Assembly: GCA_038231435.1 (NCBI GenBank)
Contig: JBBRLJ010000043.1
Coordinates: 1 to 43,523 of the forward strand
Reading direction: 5' to 3'
DNA: 43,523 nucleotides
Source: Planctomycetota bacterium
GTDB taxonomy: Bacteria; Planctomycetota; UBA11346
The notes below the pieces were generated by a model. That model saw only the letters and a program-made list of their open reading frames with translations, was not told the DNA's origin and made no database searches. Positions 3,305 through 32,340 of this stretch are shown one piece after another; position 1 is the first letter of the stretch; every line of letters begins with the position of its first letter. The translations under genes and the position numbers were made by a program.

Positions 3305-6300
3305 ATGACGTATGACCTCACTCCCATGGTTGCGACCGTTGCGTTCTGGTGCGTGGATTGCGGGTACCGGCAGGATGTGCCGGACCGGCTGCTCGGGCGC
3401 AAAGTCAGATGCCCCAAGTGCGAAACGCGGCAGATCGTGCGCGCTCGCGGCGCCAACGCCCGCGTCGACGGCACCGATTCGGATTCGGTCTCCGGCTCGG
3501 TCTCGTCGTCGTCGCTGCCTCCCAAAGCCGCACGGCCCGATCCGGGTCCGTCGCTGCCGCGCTCTCCAGCTTCGAACGCTCTCGAACGGCGCCGCGTCAC
3601 CGAGACCTTTGCCGGCGAGGATACGCTGTCATCCAGCCTGCCCGGAGACACGCCTCCCACGGTGGTGCGTCCGACCACGCGCACGGTGCGCGCGTCTACG
3701 CGAGCCGACACCGAGACGGAATCCCCGGACGAGCTCAGCTTCGCCGATGTGACCTTCAAGAAATCGCAGGACCTGCCCGAAGACGAGCAGTCGCTCAACA
3801 CCGACAGCATGAACTCGCTGGCGGGCACCTCGCTGGCGACGATCAAGCCGTCGACCGATGTCTACACCCGCGTCATGGCGCTCGGCACCGGCTACCGCCT
3901 CGGCAAGGTCATCGGCCGCGGCGGCATGGGCGCGGTGCACGCCTCCGAGCAGCTCTCGCTCGGCCGCATGGTGGCGATCAAGACCATCCGCGCCGATGCC
4001 GACGACGTGGCCGCCGCCGGTCGCTTCCGCGCAGAGGCCATGGTCATGGCCCTGCTCGAGCATCCGAACATCATTCCCGTGCACGATCTCGTCGACGTGC
4101 AGGGCGAACTGCGCTTGGTGATGAAGAAGATCCAGGGCGTGACCTGGCGCGACCTCATCTACCCGTCCAGCGAGCAGCACGTGAAGCGCTCGTTGGCGGC
4201 CAAGCTCGACGACCACCTCGACATCCTGCTGAAGACCTGCGACGCCATCGCCTTCGCGCATGATCGCGGCATCGTCCATCTCGACCTCAAACCCGCGAAC
4301 ATCATGGTGGGATCGTTCGGCGAGGTGCTGGTCCTCGATTGGGGCTGCGCACTGGCCACCGGACCAGTCGGTAGCGATGCGATCCCGACGGTAGCGGATT
4401 TCCACGGTCTGTCCGGCACCCCGGCGTACATGGCGCCCGAGATGGCCACCCAGTCCGGTGATCTCGGCACCACCACCGACGTGTACCTCCTTGGCGCCAT
4501 CCTCTACGAGCTGGTGGCCGGCCAGCCGCCGCATCGCGCCGATAGCGTGCACGCCAGTCTCGCCGCCGCCGCCCTGAACGAAGTCGCCCCGCCGCGCGCG
4601 CGCGGCGGTCGCCCCGCCCCGCCCGAACTGGTGGCGCTGGCGCTCGCCGCGATGTCGACGGACACCTCGAAGCGCCCGCCCACGGTGGCCGCGTTCGCCG
4701 CCCAGGTGCGCGACTACCGGCGGCATGTCGAGGCCATCCGCCTCGCTGACACCGCCAAGCAGCATCTCGCGGCTGCGGCGACCGATCGCGAGCGCGCCGA
4801 CGACGAATTCCGCAAGGCCCAGGCGGCCTGTGAGCAGGCCGTCTCGCAGTGGCCGGAATGGACGGCTGCGAAGGAGCTGCTGGCGCAGACCCTGCTCGCC
4901 TACTCCCAGCACTCCCTGTCGACCGGAGCGCACAAGCTCGCGCAGACGCACGCGCTCTCGGCGCTCGACCATTTCCGCAAGCTCGGCACCAACGCCCCCG
5001 ACGCGCAGCTGAAGGCGGCGAAGGACGTGATCGACCTCGCCACCGCCGATGAGCGCGCCCAGCGCGCGCGACAGAAGCACATCCGCGTACTGGTCGTGGG
5101 CCTGGTGCTGGTGCTGGTCCTCGGCGTCATCGGGCTGACCGTGGGCCTGGCGACGATGTCCTCGCAGCGCTCGCGCATCGTCGAAGAGAGCCGCAGCGCG
5201 GCCCAGGCGTTGGCGTCGCTGCGCGGCGAGCAGGAACAGCGCAAGAACGAGCAGCGCGCTTTCGCGCCGGTACTGATCGGCAAGGCCCGCCACGACGTCG
5301 ATGGTCGCAAGCCCAGCGACGCCCTGCAGGCCCTGTCGATCGCCCACGAGTTCGATCCCGAGAACGACGACGTGCCGCTCCTGCAGGCCGAGATCCACGC
5401 GGCGCAGAAGCACTGGCAGGAATGCGTCACCGCGCTCACCCCCTTGCGCGGGCGCATCGACGACGCCAACCAGCTCGCCACCATTGCCGAGGGCATGATC
5501 GCGCGCTGGACCCCCGAGCTCGAGTCGCACCTCGCCTCATTCCTGGTCGGTCATGGGCTGATCGCCCTGGTCGACGCCAAGAAGCTGCCGAAGGACGACC
5601 TCGAGGCCTTCTACCGTAGCGCTTTCGATGCGTTCTGGAACGGATCAGGCAAGAGCATCCGCATCGCCAACGGCACCATCGCATTCGAGCCGGCAGAGGA
5701 TGCCGCCGCCGCCCATCAGATCCGCGACCTCTCGCCGCTGCACGGATTGCCGTGCCGCGAACTGCGCCTGAACGACACCCGCGTCGCCGACCTGTCCTCG
5801 CTCAAGGGCATGCCCTTGACCAGACTCGCGCTCGCGCGCATGCCAGTGAGCGACCTCGATGCCCTCGGCGGCATGGGCCTCGAGGACCTCGACATCTCGG
5901 ACACCAGCGTCGCCGACCTGCGCCCGCTGGTGGGCCAGCCGCTCAAGCGCCTGGTCGCCGCCGGAACCCCGGTGGCAGATCTGCGCCCGCTCGCCGGACT
6001 GCCGCTCGAGGAGCTCGATCTGTCGCGCACCCGGGCCGCCGACCTCAAGCCGCTCTCGCGCCTGCCCTTGCGCGCGCTGTCGCTGGCCGCCACCCAGGTG
6101 GTCGAGCTCGAGCCGCTCGCGGCGATCCCGCTGCGCACGCTATCGTTGCGCGACACCCGCATCCGCGACCTCAGCGAGCTCGCGCACATCCCGCTGACCA
6201 CGCTCGACCTCGCCGGAACGCCAGTGCGCTCGCTGAACACCATCTCGGGGCTTGCGCTCGTCGAGCTCGACCTCGGCGGTTGCCGCGAGATCACCTCGAT

Positions 6301-6514
6301 CGCCGATCTCGCGGGCATGCCGCTCAAGCGCCTGAACCTGGTCGGCACCATGGTCACCGATCTGCGTCCGCTCGCCGCCATGCCCCTCGAGCGCCTCGAC
6401 TTCACCCCGTCGGCGATCACCGCTGGGATCGACGAACTGCGCGCCATTCCGACGCTCAAGCAGATCGGGCGCGAGGATGCGCAGGCCTTCTGGCAGCGCT
6501 ATGACCGCAAGTGA
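3305..6514 (+). CDS. Membrane Ser/Thr protein kinase with N-terminal Zn-ribbon and C-terminal leucine-rich repeats
   Basis: CVDC..CPKC N-terminus; kinase motifs IGRGGMG, VAIK, HLDLKPANI, DWG, GTPAYMAPE; one TM helix; about 11 LRRs (DLxPLxGLPLxxLxLxxT). Confidence 0.92.
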   Translation: MTYDLTPMVATVAFWCVDCGYRQDVPDRLLGRKVRCPKCETRQIVRARGANARVDGTDSDSVSGSVSSSSLPPKAARPDPGPSLPRSPASNALERRRVTETFAGEDTLSSSLPGDTPPTVVRPTTRTVRASTRADTETESPDELSFADVTFKKSQDLPEDEQSLNTDSMNSLAGTSLATIKPSTDVYTRVMALGTGYRLGKVIGRGGMGAVHASEQLSLGRMVAIKTIRADADDVAAAGRFRAEAMVMALLEHPNIIPVHDLVDVQGELRLVMKKIQGVTWRDLIYPSSEQHVKRSLAAKLDDHLDILLKTCDAIAFAHDRGIVHLDLKPANIMVGSFGEVLVLDWGCALATGPVGSDAIPTVADFHGLSGTPAYMAPEMATQSGDLGTTTDVYLLGAILYELVAGQPPHRADSVHASLAAAALNEVAPPRARGGRPAPPELVALALAAMSTDTSKRPPTVAAFAAQVRDYRRHVEAIRLADTAKQHLAAAATDRERADDEFRKAQAACEQAVSQWPEWTAAKELLAQTLLAYSQHSLSTGAHKLAQTHALSALDHFRKLGTNAPDAQLKAAKDVIDLATADERAQRARQKHIRVLVVGLVLVLVLGVIGLTVGLATMSSQRSRIVEESRSAAQALASLRGEQEQRKNEQRAFAPVLIGKARHDVDGRKPSDALQALSIAHEFDPENDDVPLLQAEIHAAQKHWQECVTALTPLRGRIDDANQLATIAEGMIARWTPELESHLASFLVGHGLIALVDAKKLPKDDLEAFYRSAFDAFWNGSGKSIRIANGTIAFEPAEDAAAAHQIRDLSPLHGLPCRELRLNDTRVADLSSLKGMPLTRLALARMPVSDLDALGGMGLEDLDISDTSVADLRPLVGQPLKRLVAAGTPVADLRPLAGLPLEELDLSRTRAADLKPLSRLPLRALSLAATQVVELEPLAAIPLRTLSLRDTRIRDLSELAHIPLTTLDLAGTPVRSLNTISGLALVELDLGGCREITSIADLAGMPLKRLNLVGTMVTDLRPLAAMPLERLDFTPSAITAGIDELRAIPTLKQIGREDAQAFWQRYDRK

Positions 6515-8558
6515 AGCGTCGCGAGTAGCCGCGCCCAGGCGGCTGCCTCCGGCCTCGGCCGCGGTCCAGGCGATGGTGGTCGCCGCGCGCCGGCGCTCGC
6601 TGCTCGATGACGAAGGCCTGCACCGGGTCGGATTGCGCGCCGTCCGCCGCGGCGTGCGTACGCTGGCCGAATTGCGCACCTGGCTGCGCGACGCCGGCGA
6701 CTGCACGCCGCGCCTGGCCGCGCGCCTGGCCGATCTGCTGCCGAGCCCGGAGGCCGAATCCGCCGGGCCGTTCCGCCTGCTCGCGCACCTCGCGGATGGC
6801 GGCATGGGGCGCGTCCACCTTGCCGAGGACGCCGTTGGCAGGCTGGTGGTGGTCAAGACGCTCAAGCCCGAGTACGGCAGCAGCGAGCGTTACGCGCACC
6901 GCTTCACGCGCGAGGCCGAGATCACCGCGCGCCTGGATCACGCCAATCTGGTGCGCAGCCTCGGCCATGGCCGCACCGCCCGCGGCGCGCTGTGGCTGGC
7001 GCTCGAATTCGTCCCGGGAGGGGACCTCGGCAGCCTGATCGAGAGCGGCGCGGTGCTCGGCGAGGCCGAGGCCCTGCTGATCACCTGCCAGGTCGCGCGT
7101 GCGCTCGAGCACGCGCATCGCATGGCGCTGATCCATCGTGATCTCAAGCCGAGCAACATCTTCCTCGCCGCCGATGGCACGGCGAAGCTCGCCGACTTCG
7201 GCCTCGCGCGTTCGACGGTCGAAGAGTACTCGGTGCAGACGGTGGCCGGCGCCGCCATGGGCAGCCCGAACTTCATGTCGCCCGAGCAGATCGAAGGCCG
7301 GCGGGACGTGGACATCCGCTGCGATCTCTATGCGCTCGGCTGCGTGCTCTATTTCGCGCTGACCGGATCGCCTCCGTACGTGGCCGACGAACCCGCCGAG
7401 ATCATGCGCATGCACCTGCGCGAACCTCCTCGTGACGTGCGCACCGTGCGCCCGGAAATCAGCGACCGCACCGCCAAGACCATCCTCAAGCTCATGCAGA
7501 AAGACCGCTCGCGGCGCTACCAGGAGCCGCGCCGTCTCGTCGAGAGCCTCGAGAAGACCCTGCGCGCCCTCGGCGCCGAGCCTGGCGACGCGCTGGCGGA
7601 GCAGACCATCAACCGCTCGATGCGCCGCCAGCCGGCGCCCATGGTCGCCGAGCCCACTCCGGCGCAGGCGCTCGCTGCCACCCCGACGACGGCACCGCGA
7701 CCCGCGCCGGAAAACGCGCGCGGAAGCGTGCCGGAAAGCGAGCCCGCTTCGTCGCCGGAGATGACCCGCGCCGACGACGCCGAGATGACTTTGGCGGTCT
7801 CAGGCGAGGGCCTGGATACGCTGCGCGATGACGGCCCGGCGCCCCAGCAGGCCGACCTCTCGCGCGCCATCGGCGCGCGTTGGCTGCACGTCGTAGGTGG
7901 GGGAAGCTATCCGCTGACGCTCATGCTGATGGCCCAGGCGCAGGCAGTGATGGGCAAGTTGCGCGAGTCGCCGATCGACATCCCGCTGCGCGTCTATCCG
8001 ATCGACGTCTTCGGCGACGAATGCCGCCGGGTCAGCCGCAGCCAATGCCGGGTGTGGGCCGATCCCGCCGCCGGCAAGGCGTACATCGAGGACAGCGGCA
8101 GCGCCAATGGCACGGTGCTCGACGGCCGCGTACTCAATCCCACGTCGCCGTGGGCGCTCGAGGACGGACGCGAGCATCGCCTCGAGGTCCCGCGGGCCAT
8201 CCGCCTGTCGTTGAAGGCGCTGCCACAACGCACGCGCCGGGAGACCTCCAGCGTCGGCCAGACCGCCGACGTCGGCATCGATTCCCTGCAGGTGCACGAC
8301 GCGCTGGTGCTGCGGCGGCTCGACAACCGGCCCTCGCTCGCCTATGCGCTGGTACTACGCCGGATCACCATCGGCTCCGTCGACGCCGATATCGCGTGCA
8401 GCAACTGGAGCGGGCCCGACCTCGAACTCGCGCTGCTCGGCGGCCGCTGGGTGTGGCGCAACCTCGGCCTGCGCAGCTGGTATCCGGTCGTCGCCGGCGA
8501 GGAGCTCGGCGCATCCGGGCTGCGCTGCTCGGCCGGCGACTACGACGCCTTCCGCTGA
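6501..8558 (+). CDS. Ser/Thr protein kinase with C-terminal FHA-like domain
   Basis: GGMGRV, HRDLKPSNI, DFG, GSPNFMSPE; FHA-like RVSRSQC...IEDSGSANGT. Start codon uncertain (6477, 6501 or later). Confidence 0.9.
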   Translation: MTASEASRVAAPRRLPPASAAVQAMVVAARRRSLLDDEGLHRVGLRAVRRGVRTLAELRTWLRDAGDCTPRLAARLADLLPSPEAESAGPFRLLAHLADGGMGRVHLAEDAVGRLVVVKTLKPEYGSSERYAHRFTREAEITARLDHANLVRSLGHGRTARGALWLALEFVPGGDLGSLIESGAVLGEAEALLITCQVARALEHAHRMALIHRDLKPSNIFLAADGTAKLADFGLARSTVEEYSVQTVAGAAMGSPNFMSPEQIEGRRDVDIRCDLYALGCVLYFALTGSPPYVADEPAEIMRMHLREPPRDVRTVRPEISDRTAKTILKLMQKDRSRRYQEPRRLVESLEKTLRALGAEPGDALAEQTINRSMRRQPAPMVAEPTPAQALAATPTTAPRPAPENARGSVPESEPASSPEMTRADDAEMTLAVSGEGLDTLRDDGPAPQQADLSRAIGARWLHVVGGGSYPLTLMLMAQAQAVMGKLRESPIDIPLRVYPIDVFGDECRRVSRSQCRVWADPAAGKAYIEDSGSANGTVLDGRVLNPTSPWALEDGREHRLEVPRAIRLSLKALPQRTRRETSSVGQTADVGIDSLQVHDALVLRRLDNRPSLAYALVLRRITIGSVDADIACSNWSGPDLELALLGGRWVWRNLGLRSWYPVVAGEELGASGLRCSAGDYDAFR

Positions 8559-18434: not shown

Positions 18435-19481
18435 CTAACGTGGTTTCACCATGATTAAATTTACATAATATATATTATCGGACATCTTGGAAATGGCGAC
18501 GGCTGCATGGTACCAGTCTCCGCCGGATCGGAAAACTGTCCACGATAAGCGCTTACGAAGCATGTTCTGGACATGGCGAAGCGGGATCGTGCGCCGGACC
18601 CAGCGCGAGAGCCGCGACACCTGGAACACATTCAGCGTGACCGACTGGCAGTCACCGTGGGGCAGGTTCCCGGGGTTTCGGATACCCCAGATCCGCCCGT
18701 CGAGACGACGCTCCGCATCCAACTTTCCGAGGTACTTGGCGCAGTACGCGGACGCGACTCGCCATGACCGCACGAGCTCGACGCGCGTTCCTGCTCGCAG
18801 GTGCTTGTCATCGCCTGAACCAACAACATCGAACCAGGATTTGGACACCCAGGCCTTCACCGCCACGCTGCACGGGACATTCCAGACCAGCAGGTGGAAA
18901 TGCGGAGCGCCGCGCTTTTGGTATTCGAGCTTCCAGATGGCGGCAGCATGCGGGAAGAACCTGAAGAATCGCCGAAACCAGTTATCGAGGTGCTTTTTCC
19001 AACCCCGCCAGTCTGGATCCCATGCAGCAGGATAGGTCAAGGTGATCATCACCGGGCGCGCGTCACGATCGAGCTTCGCGAATCGCCGTAAAAGACGCCG
19101 ACGCGAAGCCTTCGAGAAGCCGCACACCCGGCCGCGTATGGCAGGGGGCTCATCCCCCTCTGATGTCGTGACTCCTTGCCCCCCTGCATCACGTCGACAC
19201 GAACGGCTTGACCGTGAGCGCCCCCTGCCGGCCGGGAAGTCCAACGCCCGCGGCGTCGGCTCGACCACGCGACTACACTCGAGCAGACCGGGCCATGCCC
19301 TCACCTCGTACAGATCCTTCGATGACCCCCTGTACCCGCAGACATCGATCCCACGCGCTAGCGAACGCGGCGCGGCGCGCGCCGAGATATGCGCCGTAGA
19401 TAAACCCTGGGGGGCTGCGCCCCCCGAGACGGCAGCAGTCGCCAGCGCGTAGGGCGAGAACGTCTCGTACACGCGGCTCAC
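18435..19481 (-). CDS. Rolling-circle replication initiator (HUH endonuclease)
   Basis: Motif I MITLTYP, motif II EYQKRGAPHFHLLVW, motif III AYCAKYLGK (YxxKY). The C-terminal MSDNIYYVN is encoded by the dif site. True start uncertain. Confidence 0.9.
   Translation of the reverse strand: MSRVYETFSPYALATAAVSGGAAPQGLSTAHISARAAPRSLARGIDVCGYRGSSKDLYEVRAWPGLLECSRVVEPTPRALDFPAGRGRSRSSRSCRRDAGGQGVTTSEGDEPPAIRGRVCGFSKASRRRLLRRFAKLDRDARPVMITLTYPAAWDPDWRGWKKHLDNWFRRFFRFFPHAAAIWKLEYQKRGAPHFHLLVWNVPCSVAVKAWVSKSWFDVVGSGDDKHLRAGTRVELVRSWRVASAYCAKYLGKLDAERRLDGRIWGIRNPGNLPHGDCQSVTLNVFQVSRLSRWVRRTIPLRHVQNMLRKRLSWTVFRSGGDWYHAAVAISKMSDNIYYVNLIMVKPR
18458..18485 (-). other. dif: Complete dif-like Xer site (left attachment site; probable chromosomal dif)
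   Basis: Minus strand ATGTCCGATAA-TATATA-TTATGTAAATT has the 11-6-11 architecture. The right arm closely resembles the E. coli XerD arm TTATGTTAAAT and the left arm ends in ATAA like XerC arms. Confidence 0.88.
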
Positions 19482-19945
19482 ACGGCACCGCCTCGCGAGG
19501 CGTCGACAACCGACCGATGATCCCCCCGGCCCGGGCCGGGGTGCTCATCGGGCTGGCTGTCCTCCGCTTCGCTGGCGACGCCGTCCGCGCGCGCCTTGGG
19601 CGCGGGGGACCAACTTGCGGGGGCCCACTGCCCCGCTGCGCCTGGTCCCCCCGCCGAGGCGGCGGCACCCCCTCCGACGCTCTTGGTCGCTCCGGGAGTA
19701 TCGTTCTGCCCGTGCGGCGTGGTCTTGGGCGGCCGCCCGCTCCTGGGAGCGGTTGCAGCCTGCCCTTCGACCACTTCCACGTTCGCCCAATGCACACGGG
19801 GACAGATCGGCATACCAGGTCGGGCACGGCCATTGCCGTCGGTCATTCGCCCACAAAGACGACACTCCCATTTGAGGGAGGTGCGTCCCAATCGATTTCG
19901 ATAGGACCCGATGACCACCCAGCGGTGCCTTGATCGCCACGTCAT
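19478..19945 (-). CDS. Hypothetical protein with CxxC motif, coupled to rep
   Basis: WECRLCG...PIC; stop overlaps the rep GTG (GTGA); divergent from the repressor. The C-terminal half is low complexity. Confidence 0.45.
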   Translation of the reverse strand: MTWRSRHRWVVIGSYRNRLGRTSLKWECRLCGRMTDGNGRARPGMPICPRVHWANVEVVEGQAATAPRSGRPPKTTPHGQNDTPGATKSVGGGAAASAGGPGAAGQWAPASWSPAPKARADGVASEAEDSQPDEHPGPGRGDHRSVVDASRGGAV

Positions 19946-19998
19946 TGACGACGACGCTAAGATTGATCTTCACATCCTGGCTGCCACGTTTCGTGGCA
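19940..19998. promoter_or_regulatory. Divergent control region with palindromic operator candidates
   Basis: CGTCA-T-TGACG (19940-19950), AAGAT-TG-ATCTT (19959-19970) and TGCCACG-TTT-CGTGGCA (19982-19998) lie between the divergent starts. Confidence 0.55.
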
Positions 19999-20792
19999 TG
20001 CCCATCAAGCGGCCTCTACCCCCTACCGCAAAGCGCCTGCGCCAAGCGATGGGCATTGCCAAATTATCTGCAAAAAGCCTGGGCAAAAAGACCGGCCTAA
20101 GCCGCAATGCGATCCAATCCTACGCCGACGGAACGCGAACCGGACTGACCCATATCAAAGCGATGGCTGCGGCACTCGGTGTTTCTGAAGATTGGCTTCT
20201 CACCGGAAATACCCCACCTCCATGGGCAGTAAATGGGGCGACTGAGAGGGTGGAGCAAGTTTTCTCACACATCCCCGAAAGCGTACCGCTTGAAGATTCT
20301 ATAGCCTCCGGGACTACGCTGGCAAAAGACATGTATGTCAAAAGCGGCTTATTTCCTCGCTACTCAGTTGAGATGGATTTCTTTGAGATATGCCAGCTGC
20401 GCGTCTTACTGAATGCAATTGGAAAAATTAATCCGGATGGACTCGAAGGTCTTTTTGAGAAAGAAGTCTTGGCCCGCCTAAACAAAAAACTTGAGACGAT
20501 GATGTGGGGCGTGACGGGTGGAGAAAACCACCTAAAGCAAATGACAGATGCGATTGCTGGTATGAAAATTGCCGGAAAATATATGGATATGGCGAACGAA
20601 TTGTTTGCACGCCTAAGGACTAATGAAGCAAACAAAACGCCCGACATCGATTATGATAGAATTTTCAACGACACGGTTGCGAAGTACGGTTTTGAAATCG
20701 GCATGTCAATGCTTCCGGCCATTATTGAAAAAGCGCATTCCGAATCACTCTCGAAGGGGCCTTCGGCTCCTTCAGGCCCCTTCCCGCTGTAG
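19998..20792 (+). CDS. XRE/cI-like HTH repressor
   Basis: AKRLRQAM...LSAKSLGKKTGLSRNAIQSY...IKAMAAALGVSEDWLLTG is a typical XRE HTH; likely start MPIKRP at 19998; C-terminal domain unrecognised. Confidence 0.85.
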   Translation: MPIKRPLPPTAKRLRQAMGIAKLSAKSLGKKTGLSRNAIQSYADGTRTGLTHIKAMAAALGVSEDWLLTGNTPPPWAVNGATERVEQVFSHIPESVPLEDSIASGTTLAKDMYVKSGLFPRYSVEMDFFEICQLRVLLNAIGKINPDGLEGLFEKEVLARLNKKLETMMWGVTGGENHLKQMTDAIAGMKIAGKYMDMANELFARLRTNEANKTPDIDYDRIFNDTVAKYGFEIGMSMLPAIIEKAHSESLSKGPSAPSGPFPL

Positions 20793-20810: not shown

Positions 20811-20879
20811 GTCGCTTCGGCGCTCGCGCAGCCATGTGAAAGAGCTCGGCGAAACGTCCGGCGCAGTGACAAGTTAGGC
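20811..20879 (-). other. Truncated attC site (R''/L'' half only)
   Basis: Plus 20856-20882 GTCCGGCGCAGTGACAAGTTAGGCATC matches 22011-22037 of an intact attC at 24/27 positions; the L'/R' half is missing. Confidence 0.7.
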
Positions 20880-20894
20880 ATCGCTGATAAGTTA

Positions 20895-21356
20895 TTATTT
20901 ATTTCGAGGATCTATTGCTTCTTTAATTATTGATTTGAGCTCTTCCTGGTGCTTCTCAACGTTTTTTACCATATGTGTAGATATGGCTTCGTTTATGTCA
21001 TTAATCTTAGAAAAGTATCTACGGCCTGATTCTGTCTTCGCAAATGAAACGATGTCAGCTAACTCTTCCTTTGAAAAGGTATCTTTCATTTCCGCCTTAT
21101 ACGCTTCATCAAATGACTCTACTGTAAACCATTTATTATAATATTGTTCCAACTGTCCCTTTACCTTTATAAGAACTGGGTAACATTCAACTTCGGATCG
21201 CACAATAATTTTTTTTGTTGCCTCTACTTGTTTTTGAACGCCAGTTAGATCACTTAATTCTTGGATTAGCTCCTCTGAAGTTCGAATGACTTCAGCTGAC
21301 CACGCGGAACAGGATAGAATACTTTTCAGAATAATTAGAGTCAGGCAATACTTCAT
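20895..21356 (-). CDS. Cassette gene: secreted DUF2059-like protein
   Basis: Signal peptide; FSKEELADIVSFAKTESGRRY resembles the DUF2059 pattern; AT-rich; followed by an attC half-site. Confidence 0.7.
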   Translation of the reverse strand: MKYCLTLIILKSILSCSAWSAEVIRTSEELIQELSDLTGVQKQVEATKKIIVRSEVECYPVLIKVKGQLEQYYNKWFTVESFDEAYKAEMKDTFSKEELADIVSFAKTESGRRYFSKINDINEAISTHMVKNVEKHQEELKSIIKEAIDPRNK

Positions 21357-21517
21357 AAGGTATTTATCTTTCCTGTAATGCGTGGGTCAATGTTACGGAA
21401 TACTTTAATCGGTGTGGTTAGGGGCGTAGGTCATTGCCAGCTTCACAATGCGCAAATCCGCGGCGCAGGCACAATAGAATTGCAGCGATCTGATGGGCTC
21501 CTGATACATAGATAGTG

Positions 21518-21880
21518 TCAGTTTTTTTTAAGGAATGCGTACTTTTTCAGAAAGAGATAAGCAGATAAAATTCCTAATGGTAGTCCGAATAAAAAACGCA
21601 CAGTCATACTATAATTGGTATCGTTCTTAGCCATGTAAAAAAGTATGTTCCCAAATTTTGACGCGGGTGGCCAAAGATAGAAGGTAGCACAGTAAATTCC
21701 CATCAATATTCCACACAGCAAGCTAAAGCTACCATATATAATGATACCCAACAGCTTTGAGTCAGGTTCTATTAGAATCGGTATCCGTTCTCCTATGAAG
21801 GAATGCCCACAGGAACAGCGAGTCGCGTTCAAATAGGTCGACTGGCCGCAGTCTGGACAAAACCGTTTTTCGTAAGTCAT
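21518..21880 (-). CDS. Cassette gene: zinc-ribbon membrane protein
   Basis: CPDCG...RCSCG followed by two TM helices; starts 13 bp after a GTTAGGC core site. Confidence 0.7.
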   Translation of the reverse strand: MTYEKRFCPDCGQSTYLNATRCSCGHSFIGERIPILIEPDSKLLGIIIYGSFSLLCGILMGIYCATFYLWPPASKFGNILFYMAKNDTNYSMTVRFLFGLPLGILSAYLFLKKYAFLKKN

Positions 21881-21893
21881 GAGGTAATCAGAC

Positions 21894-22034
21894 GCCTAAC
21901 ACCCGAGGTCACCGGCGGCTGTCTGGGGGCACTTCTCGATGTCGCGGCGCAGGCACAATGGGAGCGTAGCGACCGCCGAGCACGACATTGAGAAGTGCCC
22001 CCAGACAGACGTCCGGTGCAGTGAGTAGTTAGGC
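21894..22034 (-). other. Integron attC site (141 bp)
   Basis: Top (minus) strand GCCTAAC-TACTC-ACTGCACCGGACG...CCGCCGGTGACCTCGGGT-GTTAGGC, with a long internal stem (plus strand CTGTCTGGGGGCACTTCTC / GAGAAGTGCCCCCAGACAG). Confidence 0.92.
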
Positions 22035-22044
22035 ATCACGGGGA

Positions 22045-22614
22045 TTATAAGGATTGCATTTCAGTAACTATATTTAATTCACTATAGTGAAGATAGACTA
22101 ACTTGCCTCTATTTAAATAGATTACATGATCTTTATCTGCGGTGTATGGGTTACCCATGATGGATACGACTTCCTTCCTTGTCATTCCCGCGTGTAATTC
22201 AGGGAATGGATCATAAGGTATTCTACCTTTGAAATATGCGACTTCAGGCTGGATAGAATGGAGGACGACATCAAAATAGACAACGCGAGCATACCCACTT
22301 GTCGTTTTTGTTATCACTGGATATAATTCTAAGTTCTCAATTCGTTTTGCATTCGTAGAGGAAATAATATCTGCGCTGGCCACTTGCTTAGGTGTAACCT
22401 TGCTACTGTGTGGCATTACATCCGGGTCTCTTAGTAAAGTCGGGATTGATTCTTCGTCTATGCTAACATAGCTGGCATCAAGTATAAGTTCTTCAGAATT
22501 GACAATGGTATAGGATTCAGCAGATATATTTTCATTTCTAATGTCGTTGCCGCAAGACGTGAGTGCAGAAAGTGCGAATATCATGACAGGACATGTTGAA
22601 TATTTATTATACAA
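22045..22614 (-). CDS. Cassette gene: putative lipoprotein with SmpA/OmlA-like C-terminal motif
   Basis: Lipobox-like ALTSC; LHAGMTRKEVVSIMGNP; start TTG 22614 or ATG 22584; stop lies 10 bp before the attC. Confidence 0.7.
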   Translation of the reverse strand: MYNKYSTCPVMIFALSALTSCGNDIRNENISAESYTIVNSEELILDASYVSIDEESIPTLLRDPDVMPHSSKVTPKQVASADIISSTNAKRIENLELYPVITKTTSGYARVVYFDVVLHSIQPEVAYFKGRIPYDPFPELHAGMTRKEVVSIMGNPYTADKDHVIYLNRGKLVYLHYSELNIVTEMQSL

Positions 22615-22652
22615 TTTATAATTCCATTTTCAAAGTAAACGATGCTCGTGAC

Positions 22653-22745
22653 GCCTAACAACCAAGATCAGCGGCGCCGAGCCAATAACCGTTCGCCAAG
22701 CACAGAAACCGCCCGACGGGGCGTCCGTTGCATCGCCAGTTAGGC
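22653..22745 (-). other. Integron attC site (93 bp)
   Basis: Top strand GCCTAAC-TGGCG-ATGCAACGGACGCC...GGCGCCGCTGATCTTGGTT-GTTAGGC. Confidence 0.9.
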
Positions 22746-22835
22746 CTGTGAGCAGAATAATTGTTACACTTCATTTTGAAATCAGGCTTGTCAAGAGATG
22801 AGTAAAATGATATCAAGATGGCTTCCATGCCTTCT

Positions 22836-23255
22836 TCATTTTATCTTATTAATTTTTAATGATTCCAATTCTTTTATAAAATCTGTCAGCTCACTGGAGG
22901 ATACCACTCGATTTGAATGAACTGTAAATTTAGATTTATCTTTAGTGTGAATTGTTATGGATGCATCGAATTTACTTCGGCTATATCCTATTATTTGATT
23001 AATTGGAATTTCAACATGCGTCGGTGAATAAAACACCAAATTGTCATTTTTAAGAGTTACATATGGGCGCCCAAGTTTAATAAACCAAATGAACAAACCA
23101 ATACATGGAATGGCAAGAGCACAAAGTGCAGATATATTGAAACCGCTTTTGGCTGCTGCACCAAAAGCCATTACAATAGCAATGCCTGCCGGAACTACCA
23201 TTTGGGTATTTCCAGAGTCGTAAATCAAAAGTTCTTCGTCTTTGGGGATTTTCAC
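22836..23255 (-). CDS. Cassette gene: small membrane protein (two TM helices plus beta-rich, PH-like C-terminus)
   Basis: Two hydrophobic segments followed by YVTLKNDNLVFY...IPINQI; AT-rich; first cassette after the putative attI. Confidence 0.7.
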   Translation of the reverse strand: MKIPKDEELLIYDSGNTQMVVPAGIAIVMAFGAAAKSGFNISALCALAIPCIGLFIWFIKLGRPYVTLKNDNLVFYSPTHVEIPINQIIGYSRSKFDASITIHTKDKSKFTVHSNRVVSSSELTDFIKELESLKINKIK

Positions 23256-23278
23256 GATTGTCGATCTATTAAATTCAG

Positions 23279-23296
23279 GCCTAACACCAATTAGGC
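23279..23296 (-). other. Putative attI-like simple site heading the cassette array
   Basis: Minus strand GCCTAA-TTGGT-GTTAGGC is a compact inverted pair resembling attI1 (CCCTAAAACAAAGTTRRRY). No matching R'' box exists upstream, unlike in an attC. Confidence 0.5.
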
Positions 23297-23709
23297 GTCA
23301 AAAGTGACGTAATATACCACGTCAGGCCAATGCCTGACGTGGTAAGGTCCTGAGTCCCAAAGGCTAGAAAACATTGAGCCCCAACGCGCATGTCACTGGT
23401 CATATTGGCCTAATTCGAATGAACAACTTCCAAGTAAAGCAATCACAATACATATTGTCACCGTTCATCGGGCAGAAAATTCCACCCGCGTCCTTTGGGA
23501 CAGACATTTAATCCCCCTGCCCTCATTCCGTTGGTGTCCGTCATCGCTCCACAGCGCTTGCATTGGAACTGGATGGTTGGCCTGCGGAGTCGGTTCAGAT
23601 AGTGTCCGATGTGTACCCATCGATGCCTCAGATACCAACTTGAAGAAGATCCGTGCGAATGGATCTTCCTAAGGTAGACTTGAAGTTGATCATAAAGTGC
23701 TTTGTCTAC

Positions 23710-23737
23710 TGGCCTTAGGATATATATTATCGGACAT
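23710..23737 (-). other. Right attachment site: dif-like with intact XerC arm and degenerate XerD arm
   Basis: Minus strand ATGTCCGATAA-TATATA-TCCTAAGGCCA; 18 bp identical to the left site. Confidence 0.85.
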
Positions 23738-28981: not shown

Positions 28982-31672
28982 CTAATTCGTCGTCATGGGT
29001 CGGTCGGATGCGCCATCCGACGCTGGCCCCGAGCCGACCGCTTGCCCAGCGCTCTCGCCGTGCCGCCCGCCCACCGCGATCGCTGGCGCTCTCCAGGCTG
29101 GAGACGACCGCCGATGGCGGGCGATGGCGCGATGCGACAAGAGGCTGGTCCAGCCGCCTCCGATCAGGATGGACAGGTTCGCGAGGATGCGCGGCACGGC
29201 GAGTCCTCCTGGGCAGGCGAGGTAGCGCGGTTCCCACGCCGGAGCGAACTTCTCCTTATATTCGCGCAAGCCGCGGAAGTTGTAGAATTGCTCGCCATGA
29301 TGGAACAGCATAGCGCCGACCCGGTTCCAGATCGGGGCGTGCGGACGGTTCTCGAGTCCCGACAGCGGCGCCATTCCCAGGCTGAACCGGCGGTAGCCCT
29401 GGGCCCGTCCCCAGCTCATCAGTTCGACGAGCAGGAAATCCATCGCTCCCCTCGGCGCATCGCTGGTGAATCGCATGAGATCGAACGATAGTTCGTGTCC
29501 GGTGCCACCAGCCCAGACATTCGCGAATGCGACCACCCGGCCCCCGCGCCGGACCAGGGCGATCGGCGTGCGGCGCAGATAGTCCTCGGCGAACCAGCCG
29601 AGCGAGAATCTCTTCTCGGCTGAGACCTTGTCGCGCAGCCAATCCTCCGAGACGCGGCGCAGCTCCGGCAGCAGCTCGTCTACGGCCGAGGTTGGCGCGA
29701 GCGCGAACTCGCAACCCTCCTTGACCGCGCGTTGATACGACCGGCGCAGATCCTTGCGGCAGGCGGCGATGGAGAACGCCGACAGATCCACGATCGCCTC
29801 CTCGCCGAGCTTGTGCAGGCTGAGGCCGAGATCGAGATACAGCGGCAGGCTCTCGCGGGTGATCTGGTAGAAGACCGGCCAACCGCCGTGGTCGGCGCAG
29901 CGCGTGCAGAATCGCCAGGCGAGATCCTCGCGCTCACGTACCCCTCCGATCGGGTCGCCCATCGAGATCCAGCTACGCCCCTCGATGGCGAACATGACGA
30001 ACGCCGTTCCCTGATCATCGAACATCAACGCCTTGTCGCCCAGGAGCGCCAGGTTACCCAGCGTGTCGGGAATCGTCCCGAGCAGCGCGCGGGCGCGCTC
30101 GATCTCGGCGTCGCACGCGGCGTCTTGTCGCGGCATCTCGGGCCGCAGCAGCCGCCACAGCGAGAAGAGCAGCAGCAGCACCGAGATTCCCACCGCGGCA
30201 CGCAGCGAACGCGGCGCGTCGCCAGAAAAAGCCACCTGCCACCACTTCTCGCCCGAGAGATCCACATGCTCGTAGCAGAACGAGGTCAGCCAGAAGGACG
30301 AGAGCAGCACGGTGACGATCGCCACGATCCAGCGCGTGGTGAAGCGCGGGCTGGTCAGCGCCGCCGCGCGACGGAACAGCGACCGGAAGGGCAGCATCGC
30401 GGCCGCGAGCGCGAGCAGGAGCAGAGCCTCCTCGTAGTCGAAACCCTTGAGCAGCGACAGCAGCGCGCTTCCGACGAGGATGGCCCAGGTCGCCGCGTAC
30501 GCAGCGCGCAAGCGCAGCTGCAACCCCCGCGCGAGCAGCAGGAGCAGCATCCCAGCGATCGAGGCGAGGAAGTGGGACGCCTCTACCACCGCCAGGGGCA
30601 CTAGGCGCGACAGCTTCAGCAGGCGTTCGTCTATCGCTGGCGTGGCTCCCGAGAAGATCAGCACCGTCCCGCCCACGAAGACCAGCACCGCGAACACGTG
30701 CGGCACCAATGGCCGCAGCAGGCGTCCGATCGCCGCGGCGGCGCGCCCGACCTTGCCACGATGGCGCAGCACCTCAAGTCCGCACAAGGTGCTCGCGGCG
30801 GCGCCGAATGGCAGCAGGTAGTACATCACCCGGTACGCTATCAGGGCGCCTGCCAAGGCGGGCTTGGGCACCTGGTCGCCGAGCAGCATGAGCAGGGTCG
30901 CCTCGAGCACGCCGAGCCCTCCTGGCACCTGGCTGACCGCTCCCGCCACCTGCGCGAGCATGAAATATCCGATGAATTTCGGGAAGCCGATGGACAGACC
31001 GCTCGGCAGCAGCGCATACACCACCCCGGAAACGAGCAGCCAATCCGCGCAGCCGACTCCCAGGAGCACCAGGGCCCATCCCGCCGGAGGCCGTGGAAAC
31101 GACCTGCGCCCGACGCGGACCGGCCGCCGCCGCGCGAGCAACGCCAGCATGCCTGCCGCGACCAGCCCCAACGCGACCACGCCGAACGCTCCGGCTCCGA
31201 ACGGCAGTCTCCACCACTCCGGCAGCGCCGGCGGCGAGATCACGAAGGCGCAGCCGCCGATGACGAGGAAACCCGACCAAAATGCTACGATGCCGCTGAC
31301 GGTGACCGCGGCGATGTCCACCGACGCCAGGCCCCAGGCCGAATACAGGCGGTAGCGCACCGATCCGCCGGACAACGCCGCATAACCGATGTTGTGGCTG
31401 AATGCGAAGGCGATGAATGCGGTGACGGCGGTCTTGCCATAGGCCAAGCTCCGGCCGACGATGCGCAGCGCGACTGCGTCGTAGGCGGTGAGCATCAGGT
31501 AGTCAGCCACCACCAATGCGCCTGCCAGCGCCAACATCCGCGCCGGTATCGCGCGCAGGTCCGCGACCAGCTCGTGGTAATGGTATTGCGCCAGCACGTG
31601 CTTGAGCACGACCAGCGCGAGCGCGAAGACCAGTACCCCGATGAACGGCAGCAGGCGTGACCAGCGCATCAC
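28982..31672 (-). CDS. mprF: Bifunctional lysylphosphatidylglycerol flippase/synthetase
   Basis: N-terminal multi-TM flippase (VPGGLGVLE); C-terminal synthase with MGDPIG, KLGEEA, DLMR, FSLGMAPLSG, FYNFRGLREYKEKF.P.WEPRYL. Confidence 0.95.
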   Translation of the reverse strand: MMRWSRLLPFIGVLVFALALVVLKHVLAQYHYHELVADLRAIPARMLALAGALVVADYLMLTAYDAVALRIVGRSLAYGKTAVTAFIAFAFSHNIGYAALSGGSVRYRLYSAWGLASVDIAAVTVSGIVAFWSGFLVIGGCAFVISPPALPEWWRLPFGAGAFGVVALGLVAAGMLALLARRRPVRVGRRSFPRPPAGWALVLLGVGCADWLLVSGVVYALLPSGLSIGFPKFIGYFMLAQVAGAVSQVPGGLGVLEATLLMLLGDQVPKPALAGALIAYRVMYYLLPFGAAASTLCGLEVLRHRGKVGRAAAAIGRLLRPLVPHVFAVLVFVGGTVLIFSGATPAIDERLLKLSRLVPLAVVEASHFLASIAGMLLLLLARGLQLRLRAAYAATWAILVGSALLSLLKGFDYEEALLLLALAAAMLPFRSLFRRAAALTSPRFTTRWIVAIVTVLLSSFWLTSFCYEHVDLSGEKWWQVAFSGDAPRSLRAAVGISVLLLLFSLWRLLRPEMPRQDAACDAEIERARALLGTIPDTLGNLALLGDKALMFDDQGTAFVMFAIEGRSWISMGDPIGGVREREDLAWRFCTRCADHGGWPVFYQITRESLPLYLDLGLSLHKLGEEAIVDLSAFSIAACRKDLRRSYQRAVKEGCEFALAPTSAVDELLPELRRVSEDWLRDKVSAEKRFSLGWFAEDYLRRTPIALVRRGGRVVAFANVWAGGTGHELSFDLMRFTSDAPRGAMDFLLVELMSWGRAQGYRRFSLGMAPLSGLENRPHAPIWNRVGAMLFHHGEQFYNFRGLREYKEKFAPAWEPRYLACPGGLAVPRILANLSILIGGGWTSLLSHRAIARHRRSSPAWRAPAIAVGGRHGESAGQAVGSGPASDGASDRPMTTN

Positions 31673-32340
31673 GCTGCTTCCTTGGGCGCGGGCTCGGGCG
31701 ACGCGGCGGAACCCATCATCCGCCTTGCCATGAACCCCAGCGCGATGGCGATGACATGATCGAGGTCACCGCTGAGCGCGCCGATATCGCGGAGGTGGCA
31801 ATGCCAGGCGACGTTGCCGCCCGTCATCGCGACGATGCCGAACAGCAGTAGCCAGCGCCAGGCGCGGGGCAATTCACCGAGCAGCATGCCGAAGCAGCCA
31901 TAACAGCCGGCCGATGGACCGAGATCGTAGGATCGATCGAGCGACACCGCCCAATCGGCGCCGGCGAGCACGAACGGCAGGATCACCAGTGATCCGATGA
32001 GCAAGGTGGCGATGTGCGTGAATGCGAAGGCGACCGCGACGCGCCTGGCGCCATGGCGCACCTCATAGGTTCCGCACGACGCGGCGATCAGGAACTGCAC
32101 TTTCCAAAAGTTGATTCCGCCGGTGATGAAGAACGCCGACGTCAGGATCCGGTGCCAGGCTCCGGTGCGCAGGTCGACCGGCGCGAATCCGAAGCGTTGA
32201 AGGATCCACGGATCCACACGTTCCCAGACTGCGCCAGTAGCGATGCCGGTGCTCAGCAGGGCGACGGCCAAGGCAATGGTGAACAGCGGGCGGTACATCA
32301 CAGCGACCTGGCGTATCGTAATCACGATGCGCTTGGCCAT
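31669..32340 (-). CDS. Rhomboid-like membrane protein
   Basis: WHRILTSAF, DLGPSAG (GxSxG) and a C-terminal His; overlaps the mprF start. Confidence 0.6.
   Translation of the reverse strand: MAKRIVITIRQVAVMYRPLFTIALAVALLSTGIATGAVWERVDPWILQRFGFAPVDLRTGAWHRILTSAFFITGGINFWKVQFLIAASCGTYEVRHGARRVAVAFAFTHIATLLIGSLVILPFVLAGADWAVSLDRSYDLGPSAGCYGCFGMLLGELPRAWRWLLLFGIVAMTGGNVAWHCHLRDIGALSGDLDHVIAIALGFMARRMMGSAASPEPAPKEAA

Follow-up and report, generated by a model that had tools for sequence, protein, structure and literature searches.

A probable dif-integrated rolling-circle element carrying attI and gene cassettes without a recombinase of its own in a planctomycete genome

What carries a row of integron gene cassettes that has no integrase beside it, and how could it have been assembled? 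The question is raised by a contig of the Planctomycetota bacterium assembly GCA_038231435.1 (JBBRLJ010000043.1), analysed over 43,523 nt and referred to here as the window. A preliminary description of the sequence had proposed an integrase-less array of four AT-rich minus-strand genes with genuine cassette boundaries. The cassette row was borne out by two intact attC sites, together with a truncated one and one that has probably decayed (Table 1). The four open reading frames are present and as AT-rich as described (GC 0.35–0.40 vs 0.674 for the genome), but only three bounded units could be delimited, and the integrase is lacking in cis only, since the genome encodes an IntI on another contig (C17). 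The view that these are genuine integron cassettes without a nearby integrase stands, but it had overlooked the attI site, the IntI of the host and the dif-bounded carrier in which the array lies.

Table 1. Positions of features of the element in the window (+, forward strand; -, reverse strand)
Feature	Position	Strand	Remarks
Rolling-circle HUH replication initiator (rep), 348 aa	18435-19481	-	PF23343 REP_ORF2-G2P
Regenerated dif, left end	18458-18485	-	XerC arm 18475-18485, 6-bp spacer, XerD arm 18458-18468
Candidate double-strand origin	19385-19406	-	inferred; nucleotide motif within 5' part of rep
Small ORF, N-terminal CxxC zinc-ribbon-like part	19478-19945	-	stop overlaps rep start
XRE-type HTH regulator	19911-20792 (alternative start 19998)	+	HTH_3 above cut-off; divergent from rep
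Truncated last attC	about 20821-20879	-	R'' + L'' half only; R' missing
Cargo ORF4, 153 aa	20895-21356	-	GC 0.357
Probable decayed attC remnant	21405-21490 (approximate limits)	-	between ORF3 and ORF4
Cargo ORF3, 120 aa	21518-21880	-	zinc-ribbon-like start and hydrophobic segments read from sequence
attC2, 141 nt, intact	21894-22034	-	host-integron family
Cargo ORF2, 179-189 aa	22045-22614	-	lipoprotein-like start read from sequence
attC1, 93 nt, intact	22653-22745	-	sister-species family; canonical bottom-strand fold
Cargo ORF1, 139 aa	22836-23255	-	hydrophobic segments read from sequence
attI	23279-23325	-	homology to host site; crossover G/TT between 23285 and 23284
Perfect 13-bp inverted repeat	23315-23344		exact edge of attI homology
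Open frame, paralogue of 19478-19945 ORF	23461-23718	-	49% over 49 aa, E 7e-17
Second junction, right end	23710-23737	-	same XerC arm and spacer as dif; XerD arm (23710-23720) degenerate

The R'' (RYYYAAC) and R' (GTTRRRY) cores of attC1 and attC2 are complementary at 7/7 positions. The preliminary description had made the case for the sites depend on R/L-box hairpins; these form in the bottom strands of attC1 and attC2, where a 7-bp R box is followed, after an unpaired spacer, by an L box containing two extrahelical bases, but the truncated last site gave no significant fold. The fold of attC2 was far better than chance (z = -9.7; 0/200 shuffles as good), that of attC1 was not (z = -0.66; 55/200 shuffles as good), and the top strand of attC1 adopts a different fold; support for attC1 thus comes from geometry and homology, not from energy. 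A search for the same attC families in related chromosomal integrons, suggested in the preliminary description, was successful. Four attC sites of the host integron are 74–76% identical to attC2, and in a 42-pair structure drawn from the same five sequences that were used to score it, all 42 pairs are held in every sequence, 11 of them by two-sided changes that all fall within attC2. The relatives of attC1 were found in sister species, at 94% identity over 97 nt in G001 (contig C12) and at 80% in G002 (contig C16), with no other match to this family in its own assembly, host arrays included. The array accordingly combines attC families, the proximal one known from sister species only and the next from the host. 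Further from attI, the probable remnant contains a 30-nt repeat with 83% identity to attC2, its whole-region alignment score being borderline and not above the best of 300 shuffles, and the truncated last site matches a host attC at 81% over 62 columns, after which the homology ends. With distance from attI, the state of the sites hence runs intact, intact, remnant, half. A heuristic attC search of the 5.2-Mb genome returned ten matches, namely the two described here, four in the host integron arrays and four scattered singletons, and a search against Rfam gave nothing near gathering score.

The complementarity between the start of a cassette and its own R'' context, reported previously as 10/10 for cassette 1 and 12/13 for cassette 2, was confirmed and extends to the third unit (9/10). 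Its interpretation as a mark of cassettes that had existed as excised circles is weakened: all seven comparison cassettes checked (four from the host, three from sister species) have the same extended complementarity, a general cassette trait that alone is no proof that these copies were circles. ORF1 had no family match in Pfam, NCBIfam, PHROGs or PADLOC, and PADLOC gave no match for the cassette genes as a whole; ORF2, ORF3 and ORF4 had weak matches below cut-off to BamE, UPF0547 and DUF2059, respectively, and a homologue search with ORF2 returned only itself. Just within cassette 2, an 11/12 sigma-70-like match (22606–22633, minus strand) precedes an ATG near 22584, and this cassette may have its own promoter.

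The head of the array is formed by a close copy of the attI site of the host. It is 89% identical over 47 columns (E 4.9e-8) to a sequence between the host intI and the first cassette (G000:C17:107780–107825), and with as many as 8 mismatches allowed no further such site occurs in the genome. When aligned against 30 intI loci of the family, the site scored 71 with that of the host, the remaining 29 giving 26 or less. Although the two sites differ by about 11%, the R box and the motifs upstream are preserved in the copy. The perfect inverted repeat bordering the homology could be a relic of attI capture. Upstream of attI no sigma-70-like match was found on the cassette (minus) strand in a scan limited to promoters of that type. 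A pattern for attI had no match in the viral collection; the genus attI pattern, which was derived from the sequences it found and is not independent of them, misses the site at 23279–23325. TGACGT motifs are repeated in the attI regions of the host (G000:C17, L265:7780–7830) and of G015 (L269), whose IntI is the closest in the family (60%), and are candidate accessory binding sites.

The IntI of the host is encoded by an open frame on contig C17 and scored 466 bits against TIGR02249 (cut-off 265). Its gene is followed by attI and the first cassette, both of which the host integron retains, and three further attC lie at the start of C13. The host array is split between the end of C17 and the start of C13 by a repeat common to several contig ends, probably an insertion sequence. 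IntI scored above cut-off in 30 of 48 family genomes. On the contig with the array neither intI nor a remnant of it was found (best tblastn E of the host IntI against the window, 0.12), and none of seven tyrosine recombinase matches in the genome (PF00589) is located there. Sites resembling attI also head cassette arrays in the sister genomes G001 (L032:1084–1150, contig C12) and G002 (L033:520–580, contig C16). No intI lies within about 5 kb upstream of either site, and neither assembly (61% and 79% complete) has an IntI that scores above cut-off, which indicates that platforms of attI and cassettes without intI recur. The two arrays have a common 63-bp motif (89%) further upstream, just past which, in G002, lies a tRNA-Arg(TCT) gene; they are possibly intI-less arrays on tRNA-integrated islands.

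The array lies within an element of 5,252 bp, about half of which is filled by cassettes, enclosed by an 18-bp perfect direct repeat (18468–18485 and 23720–23737; spacing 5252). The left copy is part of a complete 11-6-11 site that overlaps the 3' end of rep and that we take to be dif, from its conservation in the family and the dif consensus. A 17-nt dif pattern was found once in each of 24 of the 47 family genomes and twice in this genome alone, with no match for a reversed control, and the arm past the pattern is conserved across the family loci, as expected of dif. Each of the sister genomes G001 and G002 has one dif site with host-like genes on both sides. Of the Xer candidates of the host, L002 matches XerC best (305 bits) and L001 XerD (292 bits), both under the equivalog cut-offs, and no recombinase is encoded within the element. 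Contigs from public sequencing runs (four DNA runs from one study, with no RNA listed and X1 possibly being the source) bridge both junctions, and the depth over the element is similar to that of the flanks. Neither an excised circle nor an empty dif was seen among 15 of the 24 joints listed from these runs, and as run contigs drop rare forms this speaks neither for nor against excision. Joints 20878–23279, 22033–23279 and 20879–21891/21893 were considered as products of cassette excision and rejected; only their sides, of 23–27 letters, are defined, and they are read as host-integron contigs. In the viral collection, the dif-arm pattern occurred at 12 loci, none with two attC matches near the pattern; the best look-alike (L182) was rejected because it falls in an ORF that resembles a DNA methyltransferase and belongs to an unrelated phage. 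The number of KOPS was too low for use. Elsewhere in the window lie ordinary host genes, among them two large Ser/Thr kinase genes (3305–8558) and, beside a rhomboid-like gene, one for an MprF-like lysylphosphatidylglycerol synthase (28982–32340, minus strand).

On the side of the dif site, the element encodes a replication initiator with a match above cut-off to PF23343 (E 8.7e-13) and a match to phrog_3419 (rolling-circle initiation). The motifs TxTYP, HxH and Y246/K249 are present and correspond to invariant columns in an alignment of 40 sequences, in which Y250 is nearly invariant. The candidate origin is a nucleotide motif, within the 5' part of rep, whose synonymous positions are restricted; it recurs in 30 of 177 scanned Rep loci. 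No Rep was found in 47 family genomes, and a sample of 400 genomes of the phylum yielded weak partial matches in four (E 5e-5 or worse). The closest relatives (45% identity over about 90%) are encoded on 1.87-kb circles, and many others (L185, L186 and others in L187–L259) on circles of 1.3–2.6 kb with little besides rep. Terminal or tandem redundancy in 49 of 75 metagenomic loci with a Rep relative suggests that these loci resemble small circles. P0003 and P0123 (the latter encoded on a 6,262-bp contig), which belong to one cluster and are about 55% identical to this Rep, likewise end in the dif read-through peptide, and this suggests a second dif-integrated member. Elsewhere in this Rep family no array was detected: at least two attC matches were found at 0/98 and 0/79 Rep loci (177 in total, with three singletons), many of these loci being short and the detector heuristic.

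The divergently encoded XRE protein has a weak match to RstR below cut-off. No full-length relative was found and none in the viral collection, the C-terminal region being without relatives; the protein had no match to DUF3653 (Pfam, E 0.01), and its structure model, with a mean pLDDT of 44, was too poor for comparison. The small frame upstream of rep contains a long hairpin (19505–19561) and had no match in Pfam, NCBIfam or PHROGs. Atlas searches with this frame and with the XRE C-terminal region gave leads only, below 0.9. Its paralogue at the right end has no in-frame ATG in the integrated copy and continues over the junction when the circular form is computed, such that integration may cut this frame from its own start.

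The element thus has dif and dif-like ends, an initiator with intact motifs, a regulator, a copy of the host attI and cassettes, and it has no recombinase of its own; the layout is very probably that of an IMEX bearing attI and cassettes. On balance, we favour the view that this is an IMEX, in the form of a TLC-like satellite or mini-plasmid, which the XerCD of the host would integrate and into which the host IntI would load cassettes in trans. We infer both activities from the layout. A circle of the element would enter dif by means of host XerCD and regenerate the site, most likely as double-stranded DNA, a form favoured because the spacer of the element equals that of dif. TLC integrates with a degenerate XerD arm and, according to the part of the report available, requires XafT (PMC6744903); no XafT-type DUF3653 was found in the element, so that either another activator would be needed or the route would be of the folded single-strand type. 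Entry might thus proceed through a folded single-stranded attachment site of CTX type. Pairing is predicted between the degenerate XerD arm and a copy located downstream (z -2.9), and an 8-nt inverted copy of the XerC arm lies near 23610 (63/3000 shuffles; pairing probability 0.17–0.93 by context). This copy lacks the inner arm bases, however, and together with the dif-identical spacer this places the CTX-type route below the double-stranded one.

Under the favoured IMEX model, attI of the element would be a working docking site at which host IntI inserts cassettes in trans, the newest cassette would sit at attI and older units would decay outward. With the aid of a helper, for which no candidate was found here, the element could then carry cassettes among related hosts and would amount to a mobile integron with both recombinases outsourced. 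The order from intact to half sites and the foreign attC family in first position are as expected of growth from attI, but agree just as well with an array that had grown in a donor and was captured whole, and the cut last site favours capture. Also weighing against the favoured reading are the single copy, with no variant seen that has other cassettes at the same attI, the lack of an array at the other Rep loci scanned, the failure to find Rep in 47 family genomes, the lack of a sigma-70-like match ahead of attI, the XafT-type DUF3653 and the Zot gene that were looked for and not found, and the scores of the XerC and XerD candidates below their equivalog cut-offs.

A one-off capture is accordingly the rival to be taken most seriously, plausible but less probable than loading in trans: the same dif-integrated element would have taken up attI and cassettes as one block, in a single event of illegitimate recombination with a relative's chromosomal integron, with an age gradient inherited from the donor and an array that is now passive cargo or a cassette donor only. 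The sharp start of homology at the inverted repeat and its stop in the middle of an attC are as expected from such an event, as are the lack of a sigma-70-like match upstream of attI and of an array at any other Rep locus examined, and phages with fragments of chromosomal integrons have been described (PMC9892861, in the portion of the text available). It is less easily reconciled with an R box and upstream motifs that have stayed intact despite the divergence of attI, with a proximal attC family that was not found in the arrays of the host itself, and with the sister species that likewise hold attI and cassettes without intI. A defective filamentous prophage, now immobile after deletion of its virion genes or their exchange for integron DNA, is unlikely. 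It could draw on the 41%-identical Rep on an inovirus-sized IMG/VR contig (L038, read by eye), the Inoviridae record that is the only Rep match in the phage collection, the arrangement of rep and divergent repressor as in CTX and TLC, and the depth of the element, which is about that of its flanks; against this, the 1.87-kb circles of the closest Rep relatives are too small for virion genes, no virion-gene match was found in the element (Pfam, PHROGs), and the Rep motifs and both junctions are intact. Zot/pI was not found in the host genome (87.6% complete). Least probable, and largely refuted, is an ordinary CALIN that lies near dif by chance, having arisen either from rearrangement of the host integron or from cassettes inserted at a secondary site. 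CALINs are common and often on the same replicon as IntI (PMC4889954, as far as its text was available), but the array here is inside the dif repeat and headed by a true copy of attI, and attI and the first cassette are still in place in the host integron.

A broader idea, which we put forward as speculation and regard as rather unlikely in its full extent, is that of a class of minimal rolling-circle 'integron satellites' that would carry a copy of the host attI, be loaded by the host IntI, dock at dif through host XerCD and in this way move cassettes from the chromosomal integron of one species to that of a related one. In this scheme the attI-headed arrays of the sister genomes, which lack intI, would follow the same strategy with different carriers, and a new Xer activator might be found in the orphan XRE protein or in the small ORF that spans the junction. 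How cassettes are transferred among the chromosomal integrons of species is poorly explained outside clinical integrons, and a small replicon with a working attI would, if true, be a simple cassette vehicle. Rolling-circle replication yields DNA in single-stranded form, and it is in this form that attC sites fold. The element would also offer a compact natural test of whether a CALIN gains cassettes in trans or only loses them. Tools that are blind to attI would class it as a plain CALIN, so that similar elements would be overlooked.

In comparison with known systems, the features examined place the element in both the CALIN and the IMEX class: it has two intact attC with no intI or pseudogene nearby, and a regenerated dif and a dif-like flank with no integrase, in a host with XerC/XerD-like genes. 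The gonococcal genetic island is a further IMEX of the same dif-flanked kind. The element is not a complete integron, since attI is at the head of the array but intI on contig C17; nor is it an inovirus, no pI/Zot ATPase or coat genes having been found; nor is it strictly of TLC type, as it has an HUH Rep, a repressor, a degenerate XerD arm and no virion genes but gave no match to DUF3653. Mobile integrons of classes 1–5 are borne on transposons or plasmids and encode intI and Pc next to attI. They likewise combine attI and a short array of mixed origin on a mobile carrier, and differ from the element, which is without intI and in which no promoter was detected. Replicons and inoviruses with REP_ORF2-G2P (PF23343) have the same Rep family and 5' rep motif, with an attC array at 0/177 loci.

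For the published systems the comparison relies on the parts of the texts that were available. CALINs and their use in trans have been described (PMC4889954, PMC11389934, PMC9668308), and those of Cury et al. (2016, PMC4889954) are alike in having at least two attC and no adjacent intI, with mobilisation in trans proposed. Phage-borne CALINs are known as well, and in one prophage a CALIN headed by attI accompanies the prophage's own complete integron (PMC9892861). This Shewanella prophage M16-3 (Qi et al., 2023) likewise has an attI-headed array without adjacent intI, but is a 40-kb tailed cryptic prophage that encodes IntI, in contrast to the 5-kb rolling-circle dif element without a recombinase found here. 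TLC and the IMEXs of V. cholerae (PMC6744903; bioRxiv 10.64898/2026.06.12.731946) likewise lie between a regenerated dif and a site with a degenerate XerD arm and have an HUH-type Rep and a repressor without integrase or virion genes; they differ in XafT/DUF3653, not detected here, and in cargo, which here is an integron platform. The word 'integron' does not occur in the available text of these two reports or of the Legionella IMEX paper (PMC9765430). In the literature covered, mostly open full text, we found neither an IMEX nor a rolling-circle element that bears attI together with cassettes; Table S1 of PMC9892861, cited in the part available, has 17 phage CALINs and could include a similar case. 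CALINs, phage attI and IMEXs are thus each known, and what appears to be new, from this single instance and its sequence, is their combination in a dif-integrated rolling-circle element with attI and cassettes.
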